A stretch of 64,000 nt of DNA from an uncultured Planctomycetales bacterium. GTDB lineage: Bacteria > Omnitrophota > Gorgyraeia > Gygaellales > Profunditerraquicolaceae. The translations under genes and the position numbers were made by a program. Under the pieces are notes generated by a model, which was given only the letters and a program-made list of their open reading frames with translations, did no database searches and had not been told where the DNA came from. The stretch spans positions 49,927 to 113,926 of the forward strand of contig CAZIUK010000002.1 in the NCBI GenBank assembly GCA_964542785.1, in the 5' to 3' direction. Of the stretch, positions 31,423 to 55,835 are shown one piece after another. Numbering within the stretch: position 1 is the stretch's first letter; each line of letters starts with the position of its first letter.

Positions 31423-31498
31423 TGGTGGAGCTGAGGGGGATCGAACCCCTGACCCCTTGCATGCCATGCAAGTGCTCTCCCAGCTGAGCTACAGCCCC
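31423..31498 (-). tRNA. tRNA-Ala (anticodon GGC), CCA encoded
   Basis: The reverse complement GGGGCTGTAGCTCAGCTGGGAGAGCACTTGCATGGCATGCAAGGGGTCAGGGGTTCGATCCCCCTCAGCTCCACCA folds into a cloverleaf. It has the G3:U70 alanine identity pair and anticodon loop AT-GGC-AT. Confidence 0.85.
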
Positions 31499-31562
31499 AA
31501 ATATTAATCATTGACCTTTGTTATTTTAGAATATAAAATGATTTCCGTCAAATCAAATTACA

Positions 31563-31645
31563 GCCGAAGTGGTGGAATGGCATACACGTCGGTCTCAAAA
31601 ACCGATGGGCTTACGCCCGTAAGGGTTCAACTCCCTTCTTCGGCA
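31563..31645 (+). tRNA. tRNA-Leu (anticodon CAA), type II long variable arm, no encoded CCA
   Basis: GCCGAAGTGGTGGAATGGCATACACGTCGGTCTCAAAAACCGATGGGCTTACGCCCGTAAGGGTTCAACTCCCTTCTTCGGCA has acceptor GCCGAAG/CTTCGGC and anticodon loop CT-CAA-AA. The variable-arm stem is GGGC/GCCC and the T-loop is TTCAACT. Confidence 0.85.
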
Positions 31646-31786: not shown

Positions 31787-34700
31787 TTATCTCTTACCTA
31801 GAAATACCTCCCTTAATTCTTCAATAGACCTATTTATCTGAAGCACAACGAGTATATCTTTAAGGGTTAATTCAGTCTGCTGGCAATGTTCTTCTTCTTC
31901 CCGTAAAATTCCTGAAATACAGCTTATGACTTTGTCTGCGTCTTCAACTACCTGCCCTTTAATACAAGAGGCTTGTATATACTCTTTAATCCTCTGTGAA
32001 GAAGGGATAATACCGGCATTAACCATACGCTCAATCTCTTGCCACTCTTGATTTAGGTTTATACTTGAGAGGTTATTTAAAGAAGAGTGGCTGATATTAG
32101 CGCTTAGATTACTGATAGCCTGAACAACTACAGGCAGGGCAGTAAAGTCAATACCACCCATATTATTTTGGCCTACGCCTAAAGTAAGACCTTCTTGAGG
32201 CGCTTTAGCTTGCGGTAAGTCGAAAGATCCCTGCTTTATCCTCAATATGTCTTCCATATCTTTAGCTAGATCATGGGTATCTTTGTTTAATCCAGGGTAT
32301 TTTTGAGCTACCCGCCCTGCCATAACCTCATGACTAAGCCCTGCGATTATAGAACGTAAATCATTGTTGTGCTGGAAAAAATACGAATCCCCTATAAATA
32401 CCTTATCTCCTAATCTTACAGGACCGTTAATCTTATCCAGAAATCTTGTAACCATAAATGCCTCTGGTACAACTATTATCTCATTTAAGTCTATCCTTCC
32501 AAATCCAAATTTTTGCTCAAGGGTAGAAATTATATCTTTAGGTATAACAATACGCCTTGCTCCAATTAAGGCTGCTATTTCAGCAATAGCTTCTACATCC
32601 TCTTTGGCAACCCGACCATTTAAGGTATAATCTTCTTTAAGGGTACTCCTTGGCCTTGGCCTATCTATATCAAACATGACGAACTTACCATCCTCTATAC
32701 TGTTATGCGTATCTTTCCCAAAAATGCGAGTAAAATAATCCCAGCTCTTTTCATGTAAAGGCTTCAAAGATACACGGAGCCCTTCCTTATAGATATCCAT
32801 AAGAGATATTGTTTCCTTATTGCCAAAATTAAAAGAAGGCCCCAAATATCCAGGCAAAGCAATACCACTACACCCCAACCCTATAGCTAAGTCATACAAT
32901 ACCTTAAATAGGCTCATCAAGAGCTCTTCTCCATCCAAAGAAGGAGAATTAATAGTATCTATAGTAAGGACCTTGTCGCCTGCATAGTCCTTGGCAACCA
33001 TAAGGCCTATATAGCCTTTTAAAGCTTTTCCTTTGTAGACAAAGAAATACTTAGTATCTTCATGCATAGCCCTTGTATAAGGATTTCCTTTATCATCAGT
33101 ATCAAAAGAACAATCTATAATACCTGCCCTGCCGCGAAATACGCCTAAAAACCCCTGCTCAATTAGGCGGTAAGACTCAACCCCTTCTTGCTTGATTACC
33201 CTTACTTTAGATATTTCTTTATATACTTTAGAGGTTAGGCTTTGAAAAACCCCTGCTAACCCTTTGATACTTTCCATATTTAAGCTTAGGGAATTAGGCA
33301 GATGGTGCTTGTAATCCTCATAGAAATTCTTAAAGGCAGTTACCATAACCTCCTGGTCATGTGAGAACATCTGTGCCAACAACCCTTCTTCAAGCATGAT
33401 ATCGCTTATAATCAGGTCGCGCATCAGAAAAAGGCATCTTCTGCCTATATCTTGCTCTCCTAACCTATCCTTTACCAAAGAGAAAATTATCTTATAAAAC
33501 TTTCTTCTATTAGATAGAAGCTCTTGTTTAATAACTTCTTCCTGTGGATATTCAACCCTGAAACGCTCTCCTTCTTTTATCAAACCTTTATCTATCGCTT
33601 CTTGTCGCTTAAGAAGATAATAAAGGTTCTGAATATTAAAAACCTTACTCTGTGGAAAATCCTCATTTATCCAAGATAAACTATCTATCCTCTGACGTAT
33701 CCTTATTAATTCATCTAAATTCTGGTTAAATACGTTTAAATCAATACTAGATGTATCTATTATGCGCACTCCCTGGCTATTCAACTCTATAATTATTGGC
33801 TTAGCTGCCTTGGTAAAAAGGTTTTTAAAGTATCCAGGGTACTCTTTATCAAATTGAATAAGTTTATTTATCCTCTCTTTAAACTCTTCATAGGTTACAT
33901 CTATACCATTGATCTCTAAACCTAAATAAGCAAGCCATACTTCTTCTTCATTATTATAATCAAATCCAGAATTAATCATGTTCTCTGCCTTAAGCTTAAG
34001 CTTTAAGATAAAAGCCCTGGAGTCAGAAGCAGAAAAATAATCCTTAACCAACTCTTCACGAAAAGGCAGGTTATTCTCTTGCCATAGTTTGTATTTTTCG
34101 CAATCTTTGCTTAAGACCCCTCCTTTTTCTATTAGCTTAGCGTAAAGTGGGGCTAAAGCCTCTACAGCTACTTGGCAGACATAGAAATCCTCATCTTTAA
34201 GCCTATCCTCTAATAAAGATAAGGAAACTTTCTCTCCTCTTTCTATTAACTTAGCGTAAAGTGGAGCTAAAGCCTCTATTGCTGTTTGACGGACACGAGG
34301 ATCCTGATCTTTGAGTTTATCCTCTAATAAAGATAAAGTCATCTCTCCTTTTTCTATTAGCTTAGTGTAAAGTGGAGCTAAAGACTTAATTACTGTTTGG
34401 CGGGCATAGGAATCAAAAACTTTGAGTTTATCCTCCAATGAAGATAAAGAGACTTTTTCTCCTCTTTCTATTAGCTTAGCGTAGAGGAAAGCTAAAGATT
34501 TTATTGCTGTTTGGCGAACACGAGGATCCGGATCTTTGAGTTTATCCTCTAATAAAGATAAAGAGATTTTTTCTCCTTTTTCTATTAATTTAGCGTAGAG
34601 GAGAGCTAAAGATTTTATTGCTGTTTGGCGGATATGGAAATATTGATCTTTAAGCTTGCCCTCTAATAAAAGAATATTAAATATTATCTGTTGTGATGTT

Positions 34701-36232
34701 GCTTCGACAAAAGACAACTTAACCACTTTCTCTCTTTCTATAGCTCCACGCTCTGACCCAACTCCTAACGCTCCTTCTGCTTGCCGGCTTAAAGCCTCAG
34801 TTATTTCTTGTATTACTAATTCCCGGTCATTTTCATTTCCTTTAAGTATACAGGCTATGGCTTGCTCGCTAGGCTTATCGTAATAACCAAAACCCTTGCC
34901 CGGATTAAATATACCAAAAAGGCTAGCCCTTGTTAAAAATTCCTGCTGGCCTAAGACTTCTATCTTAACTTCATACTTTTCTTCTAATTCTTCTAAGGAT
35001 AGCTTTAAATCTCTTTCAGAAATATTACTTACCGCTTTATCCTCCATTATACGGACTATATCATCTCTTAACCCAGGCTGGATATACACCTCTTCATTAA
35101 AGGCTAATTGAGGGAGTTGACCTTGCGCAGGCATACAAATACTCTTCCCTCCCCCAAGGGTAGTTATCTCTACGCCAATCTGCTGAGAAACAAGACTGCC
35201 AACCTGGATCCCTCCCGAGAAGTAACTTCTGACTACCTGTCTAAAGGGGGTGGATACAAGAGTAGTAAAACTATATTCTCCGTCTTTGAATGATTTCTGA
35301 TATGCCTTAAAATAGGTATCTTTGGAGTAGGATTCTTTTAAAGCAAGGTTAGTTAAATCCTTACAGTCAATTATAAAAGAATAAGGGTTAGCCCTCTTGT
35401 TTTTATTACGGGCCTTAAACCACTGGGCTAAAATTAAGGAATAATAGACCTGCCTCAAGGGAGCGTATTTCTTAGCTGTATTTATATCCTTGGTAAGTTT
35501 AGGAATGATTAACTCCCTTATTAGCTGGCTTGAGTACTCATTAAGCTTCTTTAGGCGTTCGTCTTTGAAGTCATAAAGGACATTATCCTTTAGATGATCC
35601 TGCTCAAGCATCACCTTTAAGGTTGCCTTGTAGATGTAGGCAGAATTAGAGGTCTCTCTTATGATAATCTCATCAGGGACTATCCAAGGTCTAGTTAAGG
35701 TAGGAATAGTTATATCTTGAGAACCAAAGAGCTCCTCGGCTTTTTGGTAAAGCTTGTCCCAATACTTCTTACCTTCGGGATTTACAGGGGAGGTAAAACA
35801 AGCAGCATCTTTCTTAAGCTCTAAGTCTGCCTCAAGGAAAATTCTTCCTACATCGGTCTGGGCAAGAAGAGGATTTATAATATTATCAGGCGAGTCAGGA
35901 CGTAAGTTTACCCAGAAGAAGTCATCTGGTAAGGTCAAGCCAATAAAAAAGTATTTAAGCAGATTTTTTGAGGTATTCTCAAGGCCAACCCTTGAGGGAT
36001 TCTTTATAGCGCCCTTATCAATTAAAAGCCTAAAATTATCTTCTTTTGGGTTGTATTCTAAGTAGCGCAGATGCAAAGGCCTAAACCTATCTACGATTAA
36101 GGCATTACGCATTACACTCAGATGATTTGCAATGTCAAGCTGGGCGGCTACTTGAGGGAAACCTGAGTACTGAAGGAAAAGGATAAAGATAATAATAAAA
36201 CAGACTAATTTAAATGGTTTGTTTATTCTCAT
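31787..36232 (-). CDS. giant (~1480 aa) secreted/membrane-anchored protein with central HEAT/PBS-lyase-like repeats, function unknown
   Basis: The start is set at the ATG at 36232 (MRINKPFKLVCFIIIFILFLQY..., hydrophobic signal/anchor); the track start at 36310 is TTG. The central region has five 37-38-aa repeats, (D)P(D)PRVRQTAIKSLAxLYAKLIExGEKVSLSLLEDKLK. No recognisable catalytic motif was found. Confidence 0.5.
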   Translation of the reverse strand: MRINKPFKLVCFIIIFILFLQYSGFPQVAAQLDIANHLSVMRNALIVDRFRPLHLRYLEYNPKEDNFRLLIDKGAIKNPSRVGLENTSKNLLKYFFIGLTLPDDFFWVNLRPDSPDNIINPLLAQTDVGRIFLEADLELKKDAACFTSPVNPEGKKYWDKLYQKAEELFGSQDITIPTLTRPWIVPDEIIIRETSNSAYIYKATLKVMLEQDHLKDNVLYDFKDERLKKLNEYSSQLIRELIIPKLTKDINTAKKYAPLRQVYYSLILAQWFKARNKNKRANPYSFIIDCKDLTNLALKESYSKDTYFKAYQKSFKDGEYSFTTLVSTPFRQVVRSYFSGGIQVGSLVSQQIGVEITTLGGGKSICMPAQGQLPQLAFNEEVYIQPGLRDDIVRIMEDKAVSNISERDLKLSLEELEEKYEVKIEVLGQQEFLTRASLFGIFNPGKGFGYYDKPSEQAIACILKGNENDRELVIQEITEALSRQAEGALGVGSERGAIEREKVVKLSFVEATSQQIIFNILLLEGKLKDQYFHIRQTAIKSLALLYAKLIEKGEKISLSLLEDKLKDPDPRVRQTAIKSLAFLYAKLIERGEKVSLSSLEDKLKVFDSYARQTVIKSLAPLYTKLIEKGEMTLSLLEDKLKDQDPRVRQTAIEALAPLYAKLIERGEKVSLSLLEDRLKDEDFYVCQVAVEALAPLYAKLIEKGGVLSKDCEKYKLWQENNLPFREELVKDYFSASDSRAFILKLKLKAENMINSGFDYNNEEEVWLAYLGLEINGIDVTYEEFKERINKLIQFDKEYPGYFKNLFTKAAKPIIIELNSQGVRIIDTSSIDLNVFNQNLDELIRIRQRIDSLSWINEDFPQSKVFNIQNLYYLLKRQEAIDKGLIKEGERFRVEYPQEEVIKQELLSNRRKFYKIIFSLVKDRLGEQDIGRRCLFLMRDLIISDIMLEEGLLAQMFSHDQEVMVTAFKNFYEDYKHHLPNSLSLNMESIKGLAGVFQSLTSKVYKEISKVRVIKQEGVESYRLIEQGFLGVFRGRAGIIDCSFDTDDKGNPYTRAMHEDTKYFFVYKGKALKGYIGLMVAKDYAGDKVLTIDTINSPSLDGEELLMSLFKVLYDLAIGLGCSGIALPGYLGPSFNFGNKETISLMDIYKEGLRVSLKPLHEKSWDYFTRIFGKDTHNSIEDGKFVMFDIDRPRPRSTLKEDYTLNGRVAKEDVEAIAEIAALIGARRIVIPKDIISTLEQKFGFGRIDLNEIIVVPEAFMVTRFLDKINGPVRLGDKVFIGDSYFFQHNNDLRSIIAGLSHEVMAGRVAQKYPGLNKDTHDLAKDMEDILRIKQGSFDLPQAKAPQEGLTLGVGQNNMGGIDFTALPVVVQAISNLSANISHSSLNNLSSINLNQEWQEIERMVNAGIIPSSQRIKEYIQASCIKGQVVEDADKVISCISGILREEEEHCQQTELTLKDILVVLQINRSIEELREVFLGKR
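34120..34650. repeat. five tandem copies of a ~114-nt near-identical repeat inside the giant gene
   Basis: Plus-strand units begin roughly at 34124, 34238, 34349, 34463 and 34577 (TCTATTAGCTTAGCGTAAAGTGGAGCTAAAG...TTTATCCTCTAATAAAGATAAAG). They encode the HEAT-like protein repeats. Confidence 0.8.
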
Positions 36233-36370
36233 TACAAGCTTAATTTTAGGTAACTTTAAATTTAACCGGCTACTTAAGATAAAGTTTACAACATAGACAA
36301 GTAAAAACAAGGGTAATTCGGGAATACTTTGAAAAGGGTTTCTTTAGCATTCTTCTTGCTGAATATACGA

Positions 36371-37406: not shown

Positions 37407-38918
37407 TTAAAAACGGAGCTTTTCTTTATCTATCTTTCCTGCGCGGTTTTTAGGAAGGCTATCCTTAAAGACAAAATAATGCGGAATCTTAAAATTAGCT
37501 AAGCGCTCTCTTAAATAGTAACGCAAATCCTTTTCATCTAAGCTCTTGCCTTCTTTTAAGACTACAAAGGCCTTTGGAACCTCTCCTCTTAAATCATCTC
37601 TAGCGCCTACTACTGCTGCCTCGGCTATATCTTCATGTTTTTGTATTGCTGCTTCTACCTCCGGCTCAAAAACTATCTCTCCGCCTACTTTGATCATCTC
37701 TTTTTTTCTACCTACTATATAAAGGTTCCCATCCTCATCAAGCCTACCTAAATCTCCGGTATAAAACCACCCATTGCTCTTTGACTCTTTAGTAAGGATA
37801 GGGTCTTTATAGTAACCACTAGTTACAACCCAACTCTTAACTACTATCTCACCTATCTTTCCGGTTTGGACCACCCTTCCTTCATCATCAAATATTTTTA
37901 TCTCTATCCACGGAGCAGGCCTACCTACACTCTCTATCTTTCCTGACCCCATCGGTAAAACAGCAGTAGGGGCATTGGTCTCAGTCATCCCCCAACCATT
38001 TAAAAGATGCGCATTAGGGCAAAACTTATGGAACCTACGCAAGGCATCAGGAGAACTGGATGCGCCAAAAGTAACTATCCAACGTAAAGATGAAAGATCA
38101 AATGTCTCAAATTCTTTTAACTGTAAAAACGCATAATACATTGAAGGGACTATCCAAAAAAAACTAACCTTATATTTTATAATATTCCTTAAAAACTCAA
38201 GCGGGATAAAGCGCTCCATCAGTATAAGCCTTAAAGAAAAACAAATAGTATTCTGGATATAGATAAGCCCTCCTAAGTGAGAAAAAGGCAAAGCAGAGAG
38301 TGTTGTATCTTTATCGCTTAAATCACTATTTACAAAAAACTCCATTGACTTAGGAGGCGCTAAAAGTTGTTTATAGCTTATCAATACCCCTTTAGGCTTT
38401 CCGGTAGTACCTGAAGTATAAAAGATTATCGCCGGTTCATCTTCAGCTATATTAACATTAAGCGCATTGACATTACTATCTTCAATACAATCATTAAAAA
38501 ACCTACAGCCTTCTAATCTATCCTGGCAAGTAATAAAAACCTTTAAAAACGGTGTCTTTTCTTTTAAAGTGGCTATACGAAGATTGGCTTTAGGCTTAAA
38601 GATAAAAACCTTTGCCTCGCAATGCCTAAGGCAGGATAATAACTCATCCGTAGTAAGCATAAAATCTAATGGCACAGCTATGGCTCCCAATACCCATACT
38701 GCAAGATAACTATATATATACTCAGGCCAATTAGGCAGATACAAAGCAACCCTGTCACCTTTCTTAACTCCTTGATTTTTAAGGCTATTGGCTAAGCGTA
38801 TAGACCTCTCCTGTAACTTATCCCAAGATATCGCCTCTTCTCTAAAGATAACCGCATCCTTTTCAGGGTGCAATCTTGCTTTCTCTTCTAATATTTTGAT
38901 TAACCCCATCTTAACCAA
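37407..38918 (-). CDS. AMP-dependent synthetase/ligase (acyl-CoA or acyl-ACP synthetase-like adenylating enzyme)
   Basis: IFYTSGTTGKPKGV (AMP-binding motif I), YGMTET-like GWGMTET and the GRKKEMIKVGGE C-terminal block are present. Confidence 0.75.
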   Translation of the reverse strand: MVKMGLIKILEEKARLHPEKDAVIFREEAISWDKLQERSIRLANSLKNQGVKKGDRVALYLPNWPEYIYSYLAVWVLGAIAVPLDFMLTTDELLSCLRHCEAKVFIFKPKANLRIATLKEKTPFLKVFITCQDRLEGCRFFNDCIEDSNVNALNVNIAEDEPAIIFYTSGTTGKPKGVLISYKQLLAPPKSMEFFVNSDLSDKDTTLSALPFSHLGGLIYIQNTICFSLRLILMERFIPLEFLRNIIKYKVSFFWIVPSMYYAFLQLKEFETFDLSSLRWIVTFGASSSPDALRRFHKFCPNAHLLNGWGMTETNAPTAVLPMGSGKIESVGRPAPWIEIKIFDDEGRVVQTGKIGEIVVKSWVVTSGYYKDPILTKESKSNGWFYTGDLGRLDEDGNLYIVGRKKEMIKVGGEIVFEPEVEAAIQKHEDIAEAAVVGARDDLRGEVPKAFVVLKEGKSLDEKDLRYYLRERLANFKIPHYFVFKDSLPKNRAGKIDKEKLRF

Positions 38919-39564
38919 TCTCTGATTCTACTTTATCTATAAGCTCTTCTGTCTCTTTAATTAAATTAGCCGGCAATAATTTTAACGTCTGCACTTCTTG
39001 CTTTAATCCTTTTAAACTCCCTAAAAACCTCTTTAATATAGCAACACGTCTCTTCTGATAAGCCTCTTGCGGATTAAGCTCTTGTCTTTCTCTAATTAAA
39101 AAGGTCAGGTCTTTTTTTAGATCCTTAGTATCCTTACCATTTTCAAAGATATCCTTTCTTATCCTATGGTAATCTTCTGCGTTAAGCGACTTCTTGTTCT
39201 TAGCCTTACGCAACAGATCCACCGCCTCATAACCAGGGAACTTAGCAGTATCAGTCCTTTCAAGATAACCTTTACTTAAATAATCCGGCTCTTCTTTCTC
39301 AAGAAAAAAATACGAACGCAATAACTTCATAGCCGTATGTTTTCTAATGCCTATCTCTTTAGCAGCATAAACTTCAAAAGTGTTAAAGCCCCACTCTTTA
39401 TACATCTTGTCTTTATATACGGAATAAAACAGGCGCCCTAACTCTATCCACGAAGACTTAAAGTTCTTAGCGCTCTTTAATACGCAATGCCTTAAAGACC
39501 CTTCTTCTAAAGAGGCTAATTTATTCTCAATATTTTGAAGCGACTTAGGTTTATGAGTATGCAT
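38911..39564 (-). CDS. hypothetical protein
   Basis: It is an intact 217-aa ORF, co-directional and overlapping the neighbouring genes by 8 and 1 nt. It is Lys/Glu-rich and no motif was recognised. Confidence 0.3.
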   Translation of the reverse strand: MHTHKPKSLQNIENKLASLEEGSLRHCVLKSAKNFKSSWIELGRLFYSVYKDKMYKEWGFNTFEVYAAKEIGIRKHTAMKLLRSYFFLEKEEPDYLSKGYLERTDTAKFPGYEAVDLLRKAKNKKSLNAEDYHRIRKDIFENGKDTKDLKKDLTFLIRERQELNPQEAYQKRRVAILKRFLGSLKGLKQEVQTLKLLPANLIKETEELIDKVESEIG

Positions 39565-40640
39565 TATTCTTTACCTTTAAATACTTTTTGCATCTCCTTG
39601 CCGAAATCTTTAAACTGCCGGATATTTTCGTTTACCTTTTTTATCAGATTTTCCGGCTCTTGGCTGGCTATATTCTTTGCCGCAGCTTTTAAAATAATCT
39701 TTTTAATTTCTTCTTGCGAAATATTTGGCTTGTCAAGTTTAATCTTGATATAAAAATCTAGAATAATATTTCCATCCTCATCTGTAAAAAAATCCAACGC
39801 CTTTTTAGCAAAATCTAAACGCAAAGCATCGGAAGAGCCCTCTTTATCCTCCTCATAAACTAAATCCGAGAGTCTTAAATTAGTAGAGATATTTAAATCA
39901 TTGTCCTCCCCTTCTGCCTTAACTTTTAAGTTAAGTTTCGCGAAAGTTACCTTCCTTTCAGAGAGAAAATTTCCATAATAGGGGTAAAAATAAGAAGCGT
40001 CTAAGTCTTTTAAGGTCAAAGTTGCGTCCATATCTTTAGACCCGAAATCAACCCAGCCTAAGAGAGAAACTTCCCCTATCTTACCCGCTAAACCCTTAAG
40101 CACATCCGCAGTAATTTTAAAGTTTGCTTTTAAGGAAGTAATCGGAAGCATAACCTTGGATATATCCATATTTACCCTACTTAAGGTAACCTTAAATCCT
40201 TTAGGGTCGGTTTTCTTATCAATAAAGACAAACCGGCCATCCTTTACTAATAACCTCATTATATATAGAGCCGGTGGATTTTTATCTTCTAAGACTTCGG
40301 GGACATTAAACTTGCCTATGCGCGATTGCTCAAGGGTAATAACCGGATTTATCAAGGTTATTGAATTTAAAACAACCCTTCCAGACATTAATCCTAATAT
40401 GTTAGGGGAGACTGAAACACGTTCGGATGAAAATAAATCCCCTATCTTAAGGCCATCTAAATTAATTAACAAAGGAAGGGCAATGCTTGCTCTTTTCAGG
40501 CTTATGGGTACATTTAAACTTTTTTCTAATTGCCCAACTACCAATTTATTTATAAATAAAGATAGAATCAGATTTAAGATAAACAGTATCAATATTGCTG
40601 TAATTATAATAAAAAATATAAACTTAATTATCCTCTTCAT
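39564..40640 (-). CDS. N-terminally anchored AsmA-like/DUF748-like envelope protein (tentative)
   Basis: A single N-terminal TM helix is followed by a beta-rich region (LNLKVKAEGEDNDLNISTNLRLSDL). The resemblance to AsmA-family lipid-transfer-type proteins is weak. Confidence 0.3.
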   Translation of the reverse strand: MKRIIKFIFFIIITAILILFILNLILSLFINKLVVGQLEKSLNVPISLKRASIALPLLINLDGLKIGDLFSSERVSVSPNILGLMSGRVVLNSITLINPVITLEQSRIGKFNVPEVLEDKNPPALYIMRLLVKDGRFVFIDKKTDPKGFKVTLSRVNMDISKVMLPITSLKANFKITADVLKGLAGKIGEVSLLGWVDFGSKDMDATLTLKDLDASYFYPYYGNFLSERKVTFAKLNLKVKAEGEDNDLNISTNLRLSDLVYEEDKEGSSDALRLDFAKKALDFFTDEDGNIILDFYIKIKLDKPNISQEEIKKIILKAAAKNIASQEPENLIKKVNENIRQFKDFGKEMQKVFKGKE

Positions 40641-51231: not shown

Positions 51232-52698
51232 TTATATCTGTATTTCTCCCTTAGTAGCCGCAGCCTCCCACTTATTAATCCCATCCATAACATCCTTAAA
51301 ACAAAGCTTTGCTAAAGGGTCAAAATTACTCTCCATAATGCGGTTTATGCGCCCGGGTTTAGAGAAGAACTCACGCATACACCAAGCACCTAGGCGCCCT
51401 AGGTCTTCTATAGTTAAGTGGTCTGTAGGAATAACCGGATGCAAGAAGTCCCAAGTAGAAAAGTCAACCTTTCTAGGGTCAACCCAACCTTTCTTTAAGG
51501 CGATCCTCCACATCGGAGAATTAGGAGCCGGAGTAACGTAACCAACCCACATTATATCCGGGTCAACGCTATCGGTAAATTCAAAACGCTGTTTTATAAT
51601 CTCTTCAGTATCATAATCAAAACCCATCATGATATCGGCGACAATAGCAATATCATTTTTACGCAAAATATCTATGGTCTTTTGAATCTGCTCTAAGGTT
51701 ATCCCTTTTGCAATCTTTTTTAACTCTGACTGAGTTGTTACCTCAATCCCAAAAACTCCCATAAACAAACCGTTCTCTTTCATAATCGGGACTATTGATT
51801 CGCAATTAACCCAATCAATCGCTCTACCCAAAGAGACCCATTTAATCGGATTGCCTGATGCTTTTTTTAATTCGCAGAACTTTTTAACCCGCTCAGGGTC
51901 GACATTAAAATTATCATCCTGTATAACTACGACTTTTACCCCGTATTTCTTATGCAACAACTCTAATTCCTCCATCACTCTCTCTGGAGATTTGGCCCGC
52001 CACTTAAGGAAATCCGACGGTGAACGCGGATCAAATTGATCCCACTCATAACAAAACGTGCACGCCGAAGGACAGCCCCGGGAAGTCACCATATCCACAA
52101 AAGGCTTCCAATAAGTATGCCCGACATATTTATCCATAGGAAATAAATCATAGGCGGGTAAGGGCAATTTGTCTAAATCCTCCATCAAAGGCTTATGCGG
52201 GCCCATAACAATATTGCCATCAACGCGCGAGGTAACCCCGGCTACATCTTTTAAAGGTTTATTCTTATCAATCGCCTCAATTAAATCCCCAAATGACTCT
52301 TCCTCTGCCATAACTACAAAGTCAACCTCGGGGTTATCTTCTAAAGTAGGCACAGGCATCGCTGAATACCATAAACCTCCTAATATTATCTTTGTTTTCG
52401 GTAAAACCTTTTTAATCCCTACAGCCGCATCTTTAAAGTGGCGTAAAACGCCATATCCACCATAACCATGCAACTGCTCCCCCATAACAACAATATCCGG
52501 GTTTTTTTGCTTTACAATCTCAATAAGCTGCTCCATAGGAATCTGCTCAGCCTTGCCGTCTAAGACCTCAACATCCGAATACCCGCGCGTCTCTCTTATA
52601 TATGCTGCCCAATGCGCATAAAGTTGATTTGGCGACCTATGAATACCGTGCGTTGCCCACGCGCCTACCTTGGGCATAACAAATAGTATCTTCATCAC
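51232..52698 (-). CDS. B12-binding (class B) radical SAM enzyme
   Basis: An N-terminal Rossmann-like cobalamin-binding domain is followed by TSRGCPSACTFC (CxxxCxxC). The length is 488 aa. Confidence 0.8.
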   Translation of the reverse strand: MMKILFVMPKVGAWATHGIHRSPNQLYAHWAAYIRETRGYSDVEVLDGKAEQIPMEQLIEIVKQKNPDIVVMGEQLHGYGGYGVLRHFKDAAVGIKKVLPKTKIILGGLWYSAMPVPTLEDNPEVDFVVMAEEESFGDLIEAIDKNKPLKDVAGVTSRVDGNIVMGPHKPLMEDLDKLPLPAYDLFPMDKYVGHTYWKPFVDMVTSRGCPSACTFCYEWDQFDPRSPSDFLKWRAKSPERVMEELELLHKKYGVKVVVIQDDNFNVDPERVKKFCELKKASGNPIKWVSLGRAIDWVNCESIVPIMKENGLFMGVFGIEVTTQSELKKIAKGITLEQIQKTIDILRKNDIAIVADIMMGFDYDTEEIIKQRFEFTDSVDPDIMWVGYVTPAPNSPMWRIALKKGWVDPRKVDFSTWDFLHPVIPTDHLTIEDLGRLGAWCMREFFSKPGRINRIMESNFDPLAKLCFKDVMDGINKWEAAATKGEIQI

Positions 52699-52743
52699 TC
52701 CTCCTTCTTGGGGACACCCGTAGCTTTAATAGGTTGGATGTTC

Positions 52744-53976
52744 CTAATTAAACTTTTCTACTACTAATACTGCGTTAATTCCGCCTCTGCCGCGCGAGAT
52801 TACTAAAGCCCTATTAATCTTATATTCTTTAGCCTCTCTACTAATATAATTAAGTCCATTTAAAGCAGGTGAATCTAAATTAACTGTTGGCGGAACTAAA
52901 CCATTCTCCATCGCTAAGGTAGTAGCGATTAAATCAACTACGCCGGAGGCGCCTAACAAATTACCGAACATTGATTTAGGACAACTAACCGGAATATCTT
53001 TGGCCCTCTCTCCAAAAACATCCTTTATTGCCTCCACCTCAGAATTATCCCATAAATCAACTGCCAAGCCATCTAAGCTAATATAATCTATGTCTGAAGG
53101 GACTACTTTAGCATCTAAGAGTGCCTCCTTTATCGCCCGGGCAAGCTCTTTCCCGTCGCTTGCGCAATTTATCCGGTCAACTCCGTCACAAGTAGTCGCA
53201 TACCCTGAAATCAAAGCGAATATATTGGCTTTGCGGGATTTTGCCCTCTTTATACTCTCCATAACCACAACCCCTGAGCCTTCACCTATAACGCAACCAC
53301 TACGGCTCTTATTAAAAGGCCTGTAGGCTTGCTGGGGCTTTGAATTATCTTTGGAGAGCGCGCCATAAGTATTACAACATAAAAGCGCATAAGGAGTAAC
53401 CGGCGCTTCCATCCCCCCGGCAAGGATAAAATTCAATTTATTCTTTAATAATACTTTTTTAGCATAACCTAAGGCCATCAAAGAGCTAGCGCGATCGGCA
53501 ACGACTGTCTTTGAGAACCCCTTAATCCCATAGTAAATTGACACCTGTCCTTGCGGAGCCGCTGGAAACCACGCAGACGCCATATAAGGAGAGACCCCCT
53601 CTCTTCCTTCAATATACATATCCCTAAGCTCAGTCTCGGCGTAAAGCCACCCTCCAATAGCATTGCCTAAAAATATGCCTACTAAATTCGGATCTTCGCT
53701 TTTAATATCAATACCGGAATCTTGCAAGCTCATCTCTGCAGCAACTAAGGCCATGTGTGAAAAGACATCGATTTTCTTTAAGAGCCGCTCTGAGATATGA
53801 CTATATTTTTCTAAATCGTCAATCTGCCCGGCAATACGCGAAGGGTATTTAGAGGCGTCAAATCGAGTAATCTCTTTTATAAAAGACCTACCGCTTTTTA
53901 TATTCGCCCAAAACTGCCTCTTACCTATCCCAGAAGGAGTTACAACCCCTAAACCTGTTATTGCAATCTTATCCAC
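52744..53976 (-). CDS. ketosynthase-like chain-length-factor (KS-beta/CLF-type) protein lacking the Cys-His-His triad
   Basis: The fold is full-length KAS I/II, but the active-site position reads VVADRASS (Arg where FabF has ATACTSG Cys). The first His is absent (LDGLAVD) and the second is replaced (KSMFGNLLG, His to Asn). It has a GTG start with an AAGGAGA Shine-Dalgarno and overlaps the KS gene by 8 nt. Confidence 0.7.
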   Translation of the reverse strand: MDKIAITGLGVVTPSGIGKRQFWANIKSGRSFIKEITRFDASKYPSRIAGQIDDLEKYSHISERLLKKIDVFSHMALVAAEMSLQDSGIDIKSEDPNLVGIFLGNAIGGWLYAETELRDMYIEGREGVSPYMASAWFPAAPQGQVSIYYGIKGFSKTVVADRASSLMALGYAKKVLLKNKLNFILAGGMEAPVTPYALLCCNTYGALSKDNSKPQQAYRPFNKSRSGCVIGEGSGVVVMESIKRAKSRKANIFALISGYATTCDGVDRINCASDGKELARAIKEALLDAKVVPSDIDYISLDGLAVDLWDNSEVEAIKDVFGERAKDIPVSCPKSMFGNLLGASGVVDLIATTLAMENGLVPPTVNLDSPALNGLNYISREAKEYKINRALVISRGRGGINAVLVVEKFN

Positions 53977-55231
53977 TATATCTCCTTAATATCAATGAAG
54001 AGTGTATCCCGGAAAAACCACTACTAGTTTTTAAAATAGTATTTACTTTTTTTTCTATCGCTTGATTCGGTATATAATACAAATCACACTGCGGGTCCTT
54101 CTCCTCCTGATTGATTGTAGGAGGCAAAAGGTTTTTTTCAAAAATCATTGAGGCAATAGTCATCTCAATTGCGTTTGCCGCTGCCAAAGGATGCCCAATC
54201 ATAGACTTAAAAGAACTAATGGGTAAGCTATAAGCATACTCTCCGAAAATCTCCTTATAAGCGCTTGTCTCAAATATATCATTCATCCGGGTTGATGAGC
54301 CATGCGCGTTTATATAATCAATCTCTTTTGACTTAATCCCTGCGTCTTTAAGGGCTAAAGATATACAAGTCTCCATCGCCTGCCCATCGGAAGGAAGGTC
54401 GGTCATATGAAAGGCATTGCAGCTTGTACCAAATCCTAAAACCTCGCAATATATAGGCGCGTTACGCTTTAAGGCATGGCCTAATTCTTCTAATATCAAA
54501 ATACCTGCTCCTTCTGAGAGAACAAATCCGTCACGCTTATTATCAAACGGACGAGATGCCTTTTGCGGATCATCATTATGCACGGATAAAACATTTACTA
54601 CGTCAAAAGCACCAAAGGTTATCGGTGTAATCGGCGCCTCCGCTGCGCCACAAATCATAATATCACACTCTCCATCTTGAATAGACTCTAAACCAAACCC
54701 CAAAGAGTCTGTCCCAGCAGTACATCCTGTTGAAAGGGTGCTACAACTTCCTCTTAACTTATATTTAGAGGATAACTCTATAGAAGGAGTATTAAACATC
54801 GCAGCGTCATAAAGATCAGGACGTACCTTTGAAGGATCTATGGGATTCTTCCCATCATCTGTAACAAGCGCAAACTCCTCCTCCATATACTTTGTCCCGC
54901 AGATAGCATTAGCCAAACAAACCCCAATACGCCTAGGGTCTTCTTTATTAAAATCCAAACCGCTATCCTTTACTGCCATATCTGCAGCAACTACCCCGAA
55001 TTGCACATACCTATCCATGCGCATAGCCTCTTTATGAGTTAAACCCAATTTAAAAGGGTCAAAATCACGTACCTCTGCGGCAATCTTGGTATTAAATATA
55101 GAGACGTCAAACCCATCAACGCGCTCTACCCCAGACTTACCTGATACAAACCCCTCCCAAGCAGATTTCTTCCCTATGCCGTTAGGAGATATAACCCCTA
55201 TGCCTGTAATAACTACTCTGCGTTTATTCAT
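53969..55231 (-). CDS. beta-ketoacyl-ACP synthase (active KS-alpha/FabF-like)
   Basis: STGCTAGTDS (active Cys), NAHGSST and KSMIGHPLAAA (both His) are present. The start is moved to the ATG at 55231 (MNKRRVVITGIGVIS); the track start is TTG and overlaps the upstream gene. Confidence 0.8.
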   Translation of the reverse strand: MNKRRVVITGIGVISPNGIGKKSAWEGFVSGKSGVERVDGFDVSIFNTKIAAEVRDFDPFKLGLTHKEAMRMDRYVQFGVVAADMAVKDSGLDFNKEDPRRIGVCLANAICGTKYMEEEFALVTDDGKNPIDPSKVRPDLYDAAMFNTPSIELSSKYKLRGSCSTLSTGCTAGTDSLGFGLESIQDGECDIMICGAAEAPITPITFGAFDVVNVLSVHNDDPQKASRPFDNKRDGFVLSEGAGILILEELGHALKRNAPIYCEVLGFGTSCNAFHMTDLPSDGQAMETCISLALKDAGIKSKEIDYINAHGSSTRMNDIFETSAYKEIFGEYAYSLPISSFKSMIGHPLAAANAIEMTIASMIFEKNLLPPTINQEEKDPQCDLYYIPNQAIEKKVNTILKTSSGFSGIHSSLILRRYSG

Positions 55232-55235
55232 AAGA

Positions 55236-55835
55236 TTATCTTTTCTCCTCGTCAATCCTCGTTACCTTAAAGACTATATTCCCTCCATCAGGACAAGTGA
55301 CTGTATCTATTGAATTAGGGTCTTGCATGAAGAAAAATTTTGCCCCGAAGTTTAATGCAAAGAGCGCCGGAAAAGCGCAATGAAAAGCAGCCCCGCAAAA
55401 ATTTGGGATAGTCTTTAACCCTTGCGTCTCCCACCTATCCCCTACTTTATACCCATAAGAACATTTGCCCTTAGCCTTAACTACTTCAATAATCATCTTT
55501 TTAGGGTTTGGGCCCTTATGCCTTAAGTCCTTAGCGACAAACTCTACATTCCCCTGCTTGTCAAGTATCTCTGCTTGAAACTCCAACTTACCTCCGTCAG
55601 GGCAGGTAACCAAAAGTGACCTCTGGTTTTCTCTAAACCCGAATTTTGCCCCAAAACTTAAAGCATAGATAACCGGGAATAAAGCATGCGCTAAACCTAA
55701 ACAAAAATGCTTTGGAGGATGGGTAAAATCTTCTAAGATAATCTCATCCCCCTTTTTATAGCCATGGTAGCATTCGCCAAATACATTAGTTACGGTTAAC
55801 TTTAATTTAGGAAAGGGCGTCTTAACTTCTCTCAT
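55236..55835 (-). CDS. tandem-duplicated Cys/His-rich domain protein (two TIGR04076-like ~95-aa repeats), probable metal-binding, function unknown
   Basis: Repeat 1 is GECYHGYKKGDEI...HFCLGLAHALFPVIYALSFGAKFGF...VTCPDGGKLEF. Repeat 2 is GKCSYGYKVGDRW...NFCGAAFHCAFPALFALNFGAKFFF...VTCPDGGNIVF. Confidence 0.4.
   Translation of the reverse strand: MREVKTPFPKLKLTVTNVFGECYHGYKKGDEIILEDFTHPPKHFCLGLAHALFPVIYALSFGAKFGFRENQRSLLVTCPDGGKLEFQAEILDKQGNVEFVAKDLRHKGPNPKKMIIEVVKAKGKCSYGYKVGDRWETQGLKTIPNFCGAAFHCAFPALFALNFGAKFFFMQDPNSIDTVTCPDGGNIVFKVTRIDEEKR

Follow-up and report, generated by a model that had tools for sequence, protein, structure and literature searches.

Candidatus Omnitrophota are widespread, ultra-small bacteria which are suspected to live as epibionts or predators. 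To our knowledge, almost nothing is known of their action on partner cells; studies have so far concentrated on their giant proteins of 10,000 to 147,000 amino acids (aa). These 'archaeovorins', for which a gene length of more than 90 kb (about 30,000 aa or more) served as the screening cut-off, are largely extracellular by prediction and were proposed to act on prey; HEAT is the most frequent of their domains, besides PPDK_N, NUDIX, GGDEF, radical SAM, methyltransferases, GNAT, glycosyltransferases and peptidases (10.1101/2023.11.21.568195). A catalogue of long Omnitrophota proteins exists as well (10.64898/2026.06.07.730766). Here we describe a much smaller protein of 1,481 aa, encoded on the minus strand of a 64,000-nucleotide (nt) stretch of DNA, in the following called the window, from a genome labelled as an uncultured Planctomycetales bacterium and placed within the Omnitrophota by GTDB (contig CAZIUK010000002.1, positions 49,927 to 113,926, assembly GCA_964542785.1). 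An earlier note on this DNA had drawn attention to a tandem repeat array within the gene. Sequence comparison assigns the gene to a very large family of paralogs restricted to Candidatus Omnitrophota, in which two constant modules enclose a variable middle like bookends, and it is this family, not the repeats, that is the feature of real interest. This large, Omnitrophota-specific family of modular proteins with predicted export is apparently undescribed. A literature search gave no description of it, the relevant papers treating only proteins of at least 10,000 aa, and by term search neither the shared N- and C-terminal modules nor a family in the range of 0.6 to 6.4 thousand aa appears in the two Omnitrophota papers (10.1101/2023.11.21.568195; 10.64898/2026.06.07.730766).

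The bookend family and its constant modules

A homolog search yielded at least 827 significant matches, and every named one belongs to Candidatus Omnitrophota/Omnitrophica. The 120 best matches all cover the same two regions of the protein, aa ~1-342 at 50-73% identity and aa ~1359-1480 at 32-66%. Between these two modules the coverage falls to one or two of the 120 sequences, and the whole middle is common only to the closest ortholog, P0001. The family was defined operationally, by an N-module plus a C-module, and the protein from the window shows all three of its features: the N-module after a signal-like N-terminus, the C-terminal GGIDF module and a cassette-like middle. When aa 1-345 were compared by phmmer with 1.84 billion representatives of 50%-identity clusters, 7,429 proteins were found at E<=1e-3 and 5,402 at E<=1e-30; among the 150 matches listed nearly all consist of one stretch, located at or near the N-terminus of proteins of ~400 to 6,439 aa. 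Both modules are present in 173 of 213 fetched members, which are 609 to 6,439 aa long and carry them at the extreme ends, with the C-module at most 38 aa away from the C-terminus. The remaining 40 have no C-module; most of them are short, perhaps because contig ends cut them off. In a genome scan 33 loci were located, 28 in records labelled Omnitrophota/Omnitrophica and five in metagenome-assembled genomes (MAGs) labelled 'uncultured Planctomycetales'. The family is multi-copy, with at least four members in MAG GCA_016208765.1, and five of the 33 loci adjoin another family member. Two loci on two contigs of MAG CAZYCL01 (L019 and L023) share a 4-kb stretch with a family gene at 100% identity, which is probably a matter of redundancy in assembly or binning and not a true duplication.

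The N-module has 96 invariant columns in an alignment of 32 sequences, closes with a near-invariant IRSYFSGG and is predicted to adopt an alpha/beta fold without known relative. The C-module opens with a near-invariant GGIDFRxLP, which reads GGIDFTALP in this protein, and contains two well-conserved cysteines. It was modelled by AlphaFold2 as an all-helical bundle of seven helices at a predicted local distance difference test score (pLDDT) of 80-97; comparison of this fold gave non-specific helical-bundle matches only. Searches of the whole protein and its sub-regions against Pfam, NCBIfam, PADLOC and PHROGs returned nothing beyond HEAT-type matches, and sequence and profile searches of the PDB returned no significant match. 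The only borderline case, a similarity of the N-module over 70 aa to a chain of a viral 'Penton protein' (7rd1_M; 17 bits, E 0.009), was taken as chance. The earlier note had stated that the regions flanking the repeats match nothing recognisable; in fact both flanks match thousands of proteins. Nor do they match a surface-layer or adhesin family, the outcome which would have spoken against that note; none of the curated libraries that were searched contains the family of the flanks.

Gly-Gly motifs stand at both borders of the variable region, IRSYFSGG (35207-35230, aa 335-342) on one side and GGIDFRxLP (32132-32158, aa 1359-1367) on the other. From their sequence these may be hinges or processing sites of the double-glycine type. 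C39 double-glycine peptidase domains have been reported in giant Omnitrophota proteins (10.1101/2023.11.21.568195).

Modules and middles were compared in 143 members with complete modules. The mean pairwise identity is 69% for the N-modules and 48% for the C-modules, the two being correlated (r=0.50), and a similarity of any kind between middles, which range from 147 to 5,965 aa, was detected in only 1.9% of member pairs. Even where the N-modules of two members agree to at least 90%, as they do in 23 pairs, only ten of these pairs share the middle. Two tandem paralogs (L016 and L017, JBAZJY010000001.1, 295134-309486) are 97.3% identical in DNA over 1,190 nt, that is, from codon ~10 to ~405, and lack detectable similarity past codon ~405. 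This sharp boundary, about 60 codons beyond the N-module, has the appearance of a gene conversion or cassette swap. The family as a whole evolves, as these comparisons indicate, by exchange of the middles through recombination at the module borders.

What is exchanged is diverse. According to precomputed Pfam annotation and the names in the source records, the cargos of the top matches include GNAT, PPDK_N/PEP-utilising, FHA with metallophosphoesterase, several methyltransferase families dependent on S-adenosylmethionine (SAM), NAD-glutamate dehydrogenase, protein kinase, GGDEF, radical SAM with B12-binding, DnaJ, CheR, Nudix, HD, CN-hydrolase, M20, M23 and M48 peptidases, glycosyltransferase, TPR and HEAT domains. 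Across the family, the cofactors used by these cargos are acetyl-CoA, SAM, ATP, NAD and GTP.

Gene start, predicted export signal and proposed payload of the protein

In the list of open reading frames (ORFs), a single long minus-strand ORF spans 31787..36310. Its listed start, a TTG at 36310, is probably too far upstream, whereas the ATG at 36232 (MRINKPFKLV...) lined up with the N-termini of 45 homologs and yields the 1,481 aa. The giant exported protein of the earlier note is hence a real and large ORF with predicted export, only with its start moved to this ATG. The first 26 residues consist of a basic n-region, MRINKPFK, a hydrophobic core and a family-conserved c-region, (E/Q)Q(S/T)GFA|Q(V/I)A, which fits the -3/-1 rule; its small-x-small motif GFA|Q, kept throughout the family, looks like a signal peptidase I site. 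On the Kyte-Doolittle scale aa 7-25 form the strongest hydrophobic segment and the only N-terminal one. The sole other peak above 1.6, aa 1108-1126, is an internal helix of a folded domain with GNAT fold (domain A, see below). The positive-inside rule and the -3/-1 rule are established knowledge on membrane topology and signal peptides. Here the basic residues precede the hydrophobic core, the next ~20 residues after it being neutral or acidic, and because of this order the bulk of the protein is predicted to lie outside the cytoplasm. A look for C-terminal sorting signals (type IX secretion system C-terminal domain, sortase, exosortase, rhombosortase) gave an all-helical C-module, no C-terminal hydrophobic segment by hydropathy and no match to such signals in Pfam or NCBIfam. 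In a scan for promoters and terminators the signals did not rise above those of shuffled sequence.

Behind the N-module follows an extension, composed of a disordered linker and a small, well-predicted alpha/beta domain at aa ~405-485. It occurs in a subset of the family (P0002, P0003, P0007, P0010, P0027), and its motif HEITEAL in the relatives reads QEITEAL here.

The next element is the repeat array. Tandem Repeats Finder (TRF) reported a period of 114 nt and 4.9 copies at 34120-34670 with 79% matches, and five clear units of 38/38/37/38/38 aa can be delimited (aa 527-715, nt 34654-34088). Over aa ~514-715 the protein matches Pfam HEAT_2 (PF13646, E=9.6e-18, 64.7 bits vs a cut-off of 27.7) and HEAT (PF02985, E=2.8e-12, 46.1 bits vs 23.5); the NblB equivalog (22.5 bits vs 300) and HEAT_EZ (19.9 vs 27) both stay below their cut-offs. 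The units are therefore of HEAT type, as proposed before, and the PBS-lyase-like part of that proposal has to be dropped. With the HEAT_2/HEAT proteins they share the 37-38-aa helical hairpin, five times over, and the signature D-x-x-x-R-x-x-A...L, but compared with these proteins, including those of PBS-lyase type, the repeats here make up just 13% of the protein and no NblB/PBS-lyase equivalog is present. HEAT repeats are classic protein-binding scaffolds.

The units had been called near-identical, a sign of recent expansion at a locus prone to slippage. Apart from the 79% matches in the TRF alignment, they are pairwise 65-85% identical in DNA and 46-84% in protein, and the longest exact match between any two is 27 nt. 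Such repeats are a poor substrate for slippage, and units which differ by 15-35% in DNA do not bear out a recent expansion. Counts with a hidden Markov model (HMM) of the unit gave five units here vs ~11 in P0001, a distant ortholog; this difference is lineage-scale variation and not that of a contingency locus. Since the units are diverged enough for unique placement, a collapse or expansion of the array as an assembly artefact is unlikely. When public assemblies were searched for the exact sequence of the protein, there was no match.

The array is followed by domain A, for which a search brought up 12 relatives. Its homologs P0001 and P0214-P0222 span aa ~716-1190 at 41-60% identity; some relatives are stand-alone (P0218, P0221), some are preceded by HEAT repeats and some stand before canonical GNAT domains. 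The cassette of HEAT repeats plus domain A recurs in P0001, P0214, P0216, P0220 and P0222. In P0223 and P0225 the homologous part, corresponding to aa 825-1190 here, is N-terminal and precedes one or two canonical GNAT domains. AlphaFold2 was run on aa 715-1481 with an alignment of natural substrings, one row of which (P0008) is partly misaligned, and gave a mean pLDDT of 83.3. The model begins with a long helical subdomain and continues with a beta-alpha-beta domain; a disordered linker then leads to domain B, and a second one (~1333-1361) to the C-module. The first subdomain of domain A, aa ~716-1005, is nearly all helix apart from a single short beta-hairpin and has a pLDDT of mostly 85-97. 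The predicted fold of the second, aa ~1006-1190, matches many GNAT structures, and the model has the mixed beta-sheet and the beta4-alpha3-beta5 core of that fold. Its invariant motifs are FRGRxGIxDCSF, YTRAMHED, KGYxG, IDTxxSxSLDG and FNFxN. Three of them, FRGRxGIxDCSF, YTRAMHED and IDTxxSxSLDG, are polar and, as far as sequence goes, suggest a functional site.

Tandem and regulatory GNAT domains are known, for instance the C-terminal domain of Mycobacterium tuberculosis ICL2. In its predicted fold domain A resembles the GNAT superfamily, and P0223 and P0225 resemble the tandem-GNAT arrangement; it differs in that no GNAT HMM matches, in the invariant SxSLDG replacing motif A and in the fused 290-aa helical subdomain, which is unique to the group. 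Domain B is an alpha/beta domain (pLDDT ~70-92) with the conserved motifs INGPVRLG and (G/S)HE(A/V)MA, common to P0002, P0004, P0005 and P0008 at 46-57% identity by BLAST and without match in Pfam. The idea that the extension domain, with its HEITEAL, and domain B, with GHEAMA, are homologous protease-like flanks was rejected at an hhalign probability of 5%. The positions of all elements are given in Table 1.

Table 1. Positions in the window of the gene, its parts and the adjacent tRNA genes
Feature	Position	Strand	Basis or remark
Complete coding sequence, 1,481 aa + stop	31787..36232	-	ORF list, translation, N-termini of homologs
Signal-peptide-like N-terminus, aa 1-26	36155..36232	-	Hydropathy, motif kept in homologs
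N-module, aa ~27-342	35207..36154	-	Family-defining
Extension, aa 343-513	34694..35206	-	Common to family subset
HEAT-repeat array, aa 514-715	34088..34693	-	TRF, Pfam HEAT_2 and HEAT, unit boundaries, unit HMM counts
Domain A, helical N-terminal subdomain, aa ~716-1005	33218..34087	-	Homologs, AlphaFold2
Domain A, GNAT-fold subdomain, aa ~1006-1190	32663..33217	-	Predicted fold
Domain B, aa ~1195-1348	32189..32650	-	BLAST, AlphaFold2
C-module, aa 1359-1481	31790..32158	-	Family-defining; 120 top matches, AlphaFold2
tRNA-Ala (GGC)	31423-31498	-	ARAGORN; neighbour, outside gene
tRNA-Leu (CAA)	31563-31645	+	ARAGORN; convergent with the gene's 3' end; neighbour, outside gene

Genomic neighbourhood

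Past the stop codon of the gene, at a distance of 142 nt, lies a divergent pair of tRNA genes, which ARAGORN confirmed as tRNA-Ala and tRNA-Leu. Their 64-nt spacer (31499-31562) carries two pairs of sigma-70-like hexamers back to back, one pair per tRNA gene, TTGACC-17-TAAAAT on the plus strand and TTGACG-17-TAAAAT on the minus strand. The other neighbours are genes for leucyl-tRNA synthetase, an AP-endonuclease-2/xylose-isomerase-like TIM-barrel protein, RlmN and an AMP-binding enzyme. Elsewhere in the window SecA, MurJ, Lnt, AcrB, a BamD-like protein and ComEC are encoded. The earlier note had considered a horizontal origin of the gene at a tRNA hotspot. No integrase was found among its neighbours, its flanks lack an att-like repeat derived from a tRNA 3' end (the best flanking repeat has 26 nt at 73% identity), and its GC content of 0.37-0.385 is inside the range of the window (0.34-0.43).

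A paralog search in the window found none, and synteny with P0001 is absent. Four genomic contexts of family members were examined, namely this one and those of P0001, P0036 and P0010; all are housekeeping and unrelated to each other. At the locus of P0010 (L035, 16130-18209 of JBAZLM010000001.1) a serine recombinase (Resolvase/Recombinase/Zn_ribbon_recom) comes after the family gene, together with a series of small ORFs that lack annotation; these may belong to an integrated element beside this paralog.

Further observations concern the window in general. Nearly all substantial ORFs from position 1 to 64000 are on the minus strand, and each 2-kb bin has a negative GC skew, which is consistent with one replichore and a very strong gene-strand bias. 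At 51232-55255, on the minus strand, a B12-binding radical-SAM protein and two beta-ketoacyl synthases are clustered; these could belong to an unusual lipid or polyketide-type pathway. Just upstream of the genes for the AMP-binding enzyme and RlmN, a 217-aa ORF without Pfam match (38911-39564) adjoins a DUF748 protein (39564-40640).

Possible function and comparison with known systems

How might such a family work? We propose, tentatively, that its members are exported and act outside the cytoplasm of the producer, with the constant modules handling a swappable payload, a possibility which falls somewhat short of an even chance. The architecture is that of a predicted Sec-type signal peptide, a constant N-module of ~315 aa, a variable cargo and, at the C-terminus, a constant helical C-module of ~120 aa. 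Because the modules stay 50-70% identical across thousands of paralogs while the middles change, they suggest a shared handling function exerted via a common partner, and could be common devices for targeting, anchoring, envelope assembly or delivery out of the producer cell. The middle would be the interchangeable payload, in this protein a five-unit HEAT scaffold plus a modifying or ligand-binding domain of GNAT fold and the further domain of 150 aa. Since the N-terminus predicts export and many cargos nevertheless need cytoplasmic cofactors, the payloads may act in or on another cell, be it partner, host or prey, and the family would amount to a polymorphic, effector-like repertoire. This fits the epibiotic or predatory lifestyle proposed for Omnitrophota as well as the interpretation of their giant proteins. 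A more specific version of the proposal appears unlikely to us. There, the N- and C-modules would be the two halves of an Omnitrophota-specific device for delivery or self-translocation, and the thousands of members would be the effectors of the phylum, cofactor-dependent enzymes and scaffolds which, after export by Sec, enter host or prey cells or are presented to them. The Gly-Gly sites at the module borders would serve as hinges or processing sites for release of the cargo.

Several points weigh against the proposal of export and action outside the producer. Neither module matches Pfam (2025), NCBIfam (2026), PADLOC or the PDB, by sequence or by fold, and the model of the N-module is of moderate confidence (mean pLDDT of 67.8 for aa 1-520). 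Cleavage of the signal peptide and localisation are deduced from sequence rules, and the role towards host or prey is extrapolated from the lifestyle proposed for the phylum and not from this genome. No conserved partner, secretion-system or immunity gene stands beside the members in the four contexts. As for the payload, no GNAT model (Acetyltransf_*) matches at E<=1, neither with the whole protein nor with aa 715-1192, and the CoA pyrophosphate-binding motif A, (Q/R)-x-x-G-x-(G/A), is not canonical; the loop reads SPSLDGEE, with SxSLDG invariant. As the HMMs miss GNAT and motif A is not intact, this domain is at most a putative acyltransferase.

The proteins might also be exported and stay at home, kept at the periplasm or surface of the producer, where the modules anchor or polymerise, as in a coat or lattice, and the cargos serve its own envelope. 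A predicted signal peptide without further membrane segment, HEAT repeats with their scaffold nature and the very high conservation of the two modules, which a shared structural contact would explain, all agree with such a role, and so do the housekeeping and envelope genes in the window (BamD-like, ComEC, MurJ, Lnt, SecA) and the cargos of envelope type (M23 and M48 peptidases, glycosyltransferases). However, many other cargos, such as kinase, glutamate dehydrogenase, PPDK, radical SAM, GGDEF and DnaJ, need ATP, NAD, SAM, GTP or acetyl-CoA, and we know of no evidence for the periplasm as a source of these. Nor were a lattice-forming or anchoring motif, a C-terminal membrane helix or a sortase-type signal found, and we regard a scaffold of the own envelope as rather unlikely. 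The cofactors would pose no difficulty if the N-terminal segment were an uncleaved anchor and the bulk cytoplasmic, so that the modules assemble at the inner face of the membrane; the cargo repertoire is indeed typical of cytoplasmic enzymes, and topology predictions for the giant proteins of Omnitrophota are unreliable according to West-Roberts et al. (10.1101/2023.11.21.568195). Against this tethering stand the charge distribution, which by the positive-inside rule puts the bulk outside, and the family-wide GFA|Q with its resemblance to a signal peptidase I site, and we consider it improbable.

Most doubtful of all is a horizontally acquired giant surface protein beside a tRNA pair, with a recently expanded HEAT array and the behaviour of a contingency locus, as suggested by the earlier note. 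It is true that a tandem 114-nt array exists, that its units are slightly more similar in DNA than in protein, that the copy number differs between distant orthologs (5 vs ~11) and that tRNA genes are adjacent. But the divergence of the units, whose longest exact match is 27 nt, the lack of integrase, att-like repeat and compositional anomaly, and the membership of the gene in a phylum-wide, vertically expanded family of paralogs speak against it, and no closely related genome is on record for a comparison at strain level. This explanation is largely refuted, and we give it hardly any weight.

The family exposes a more tractable class of proteins than the giants: 0.6 to 6 thousand aa long, with two constant modules and at least 7,400 distinct clusters at 50% identity. 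If the modules are indeed tags for export, anchoring or delivery, they provide a sequence handle with which the exported enzyme repertoire of any Omnitrophota genome can be listed, and both a co-occurrence search for the recognising machinery and experiments on small constructs become possible. If they merely are a structural anchor, there is still a very large, uncharacterised pair of domains missing from Pfam and NCBIfam. In addition, domains that depend on ATP, NAD, SAM or acetyl-CoA behind a signal peptide raise a biochemical question of their own.

Among the described systems, the archaeovorins are alike in phylum, in the predicted signal peptide or membrane targeting, in the dominance of HEAT and in a mixed vocabulary of cytoplasmic-type enzymes, together with the paradox of enzymes outside the cell. 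They have, however, 10,000-147,000 aa and tens to hundreds of membrane helices, so that a protein of 1,481 aa with one hydrophobic segment falls outside this class. Polymorphic toxins and effectors (Rhs, CdiA, MuF, PE/PPE; Zhang et al. 2012, PMC3482391) likewise form a large paralogous repertoire with a constant domain presumably used in trafficking, and their variable part is replaced in a cassette-like manner by recombination, with sharp boundaries of identity. There, the variable domain forms the C-terminus and an immunity gene comes next, whereas here it is internal and a second constant module closes the protein. Furthermore, no immunity-like neighbour was found in the four contexts, tRNA and housekeeping genes being located downstream at this locus, and the cargos are mostly enzymes of metabolic or signalling type and not recognised toxin domains. 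In the MARTX toxins, such as RtxA of Vibrio, conserved N- and C-terminal arms deliver central effector domains which vary between strains. These arms consist of glycine-rich repeats, secretion takes the type I route with no Sec signal, and the effectors are freed by a cysteine protease domain. The protein described here has a Sec-type N-terminus and no Pfam match to glycine-rich/RTX repeats or to the cysteine protease domain, and the two are related neither in sequence nor in fold. The likeness to MARTX is an analogy in working mode: constant ends around an interchangeable middle.

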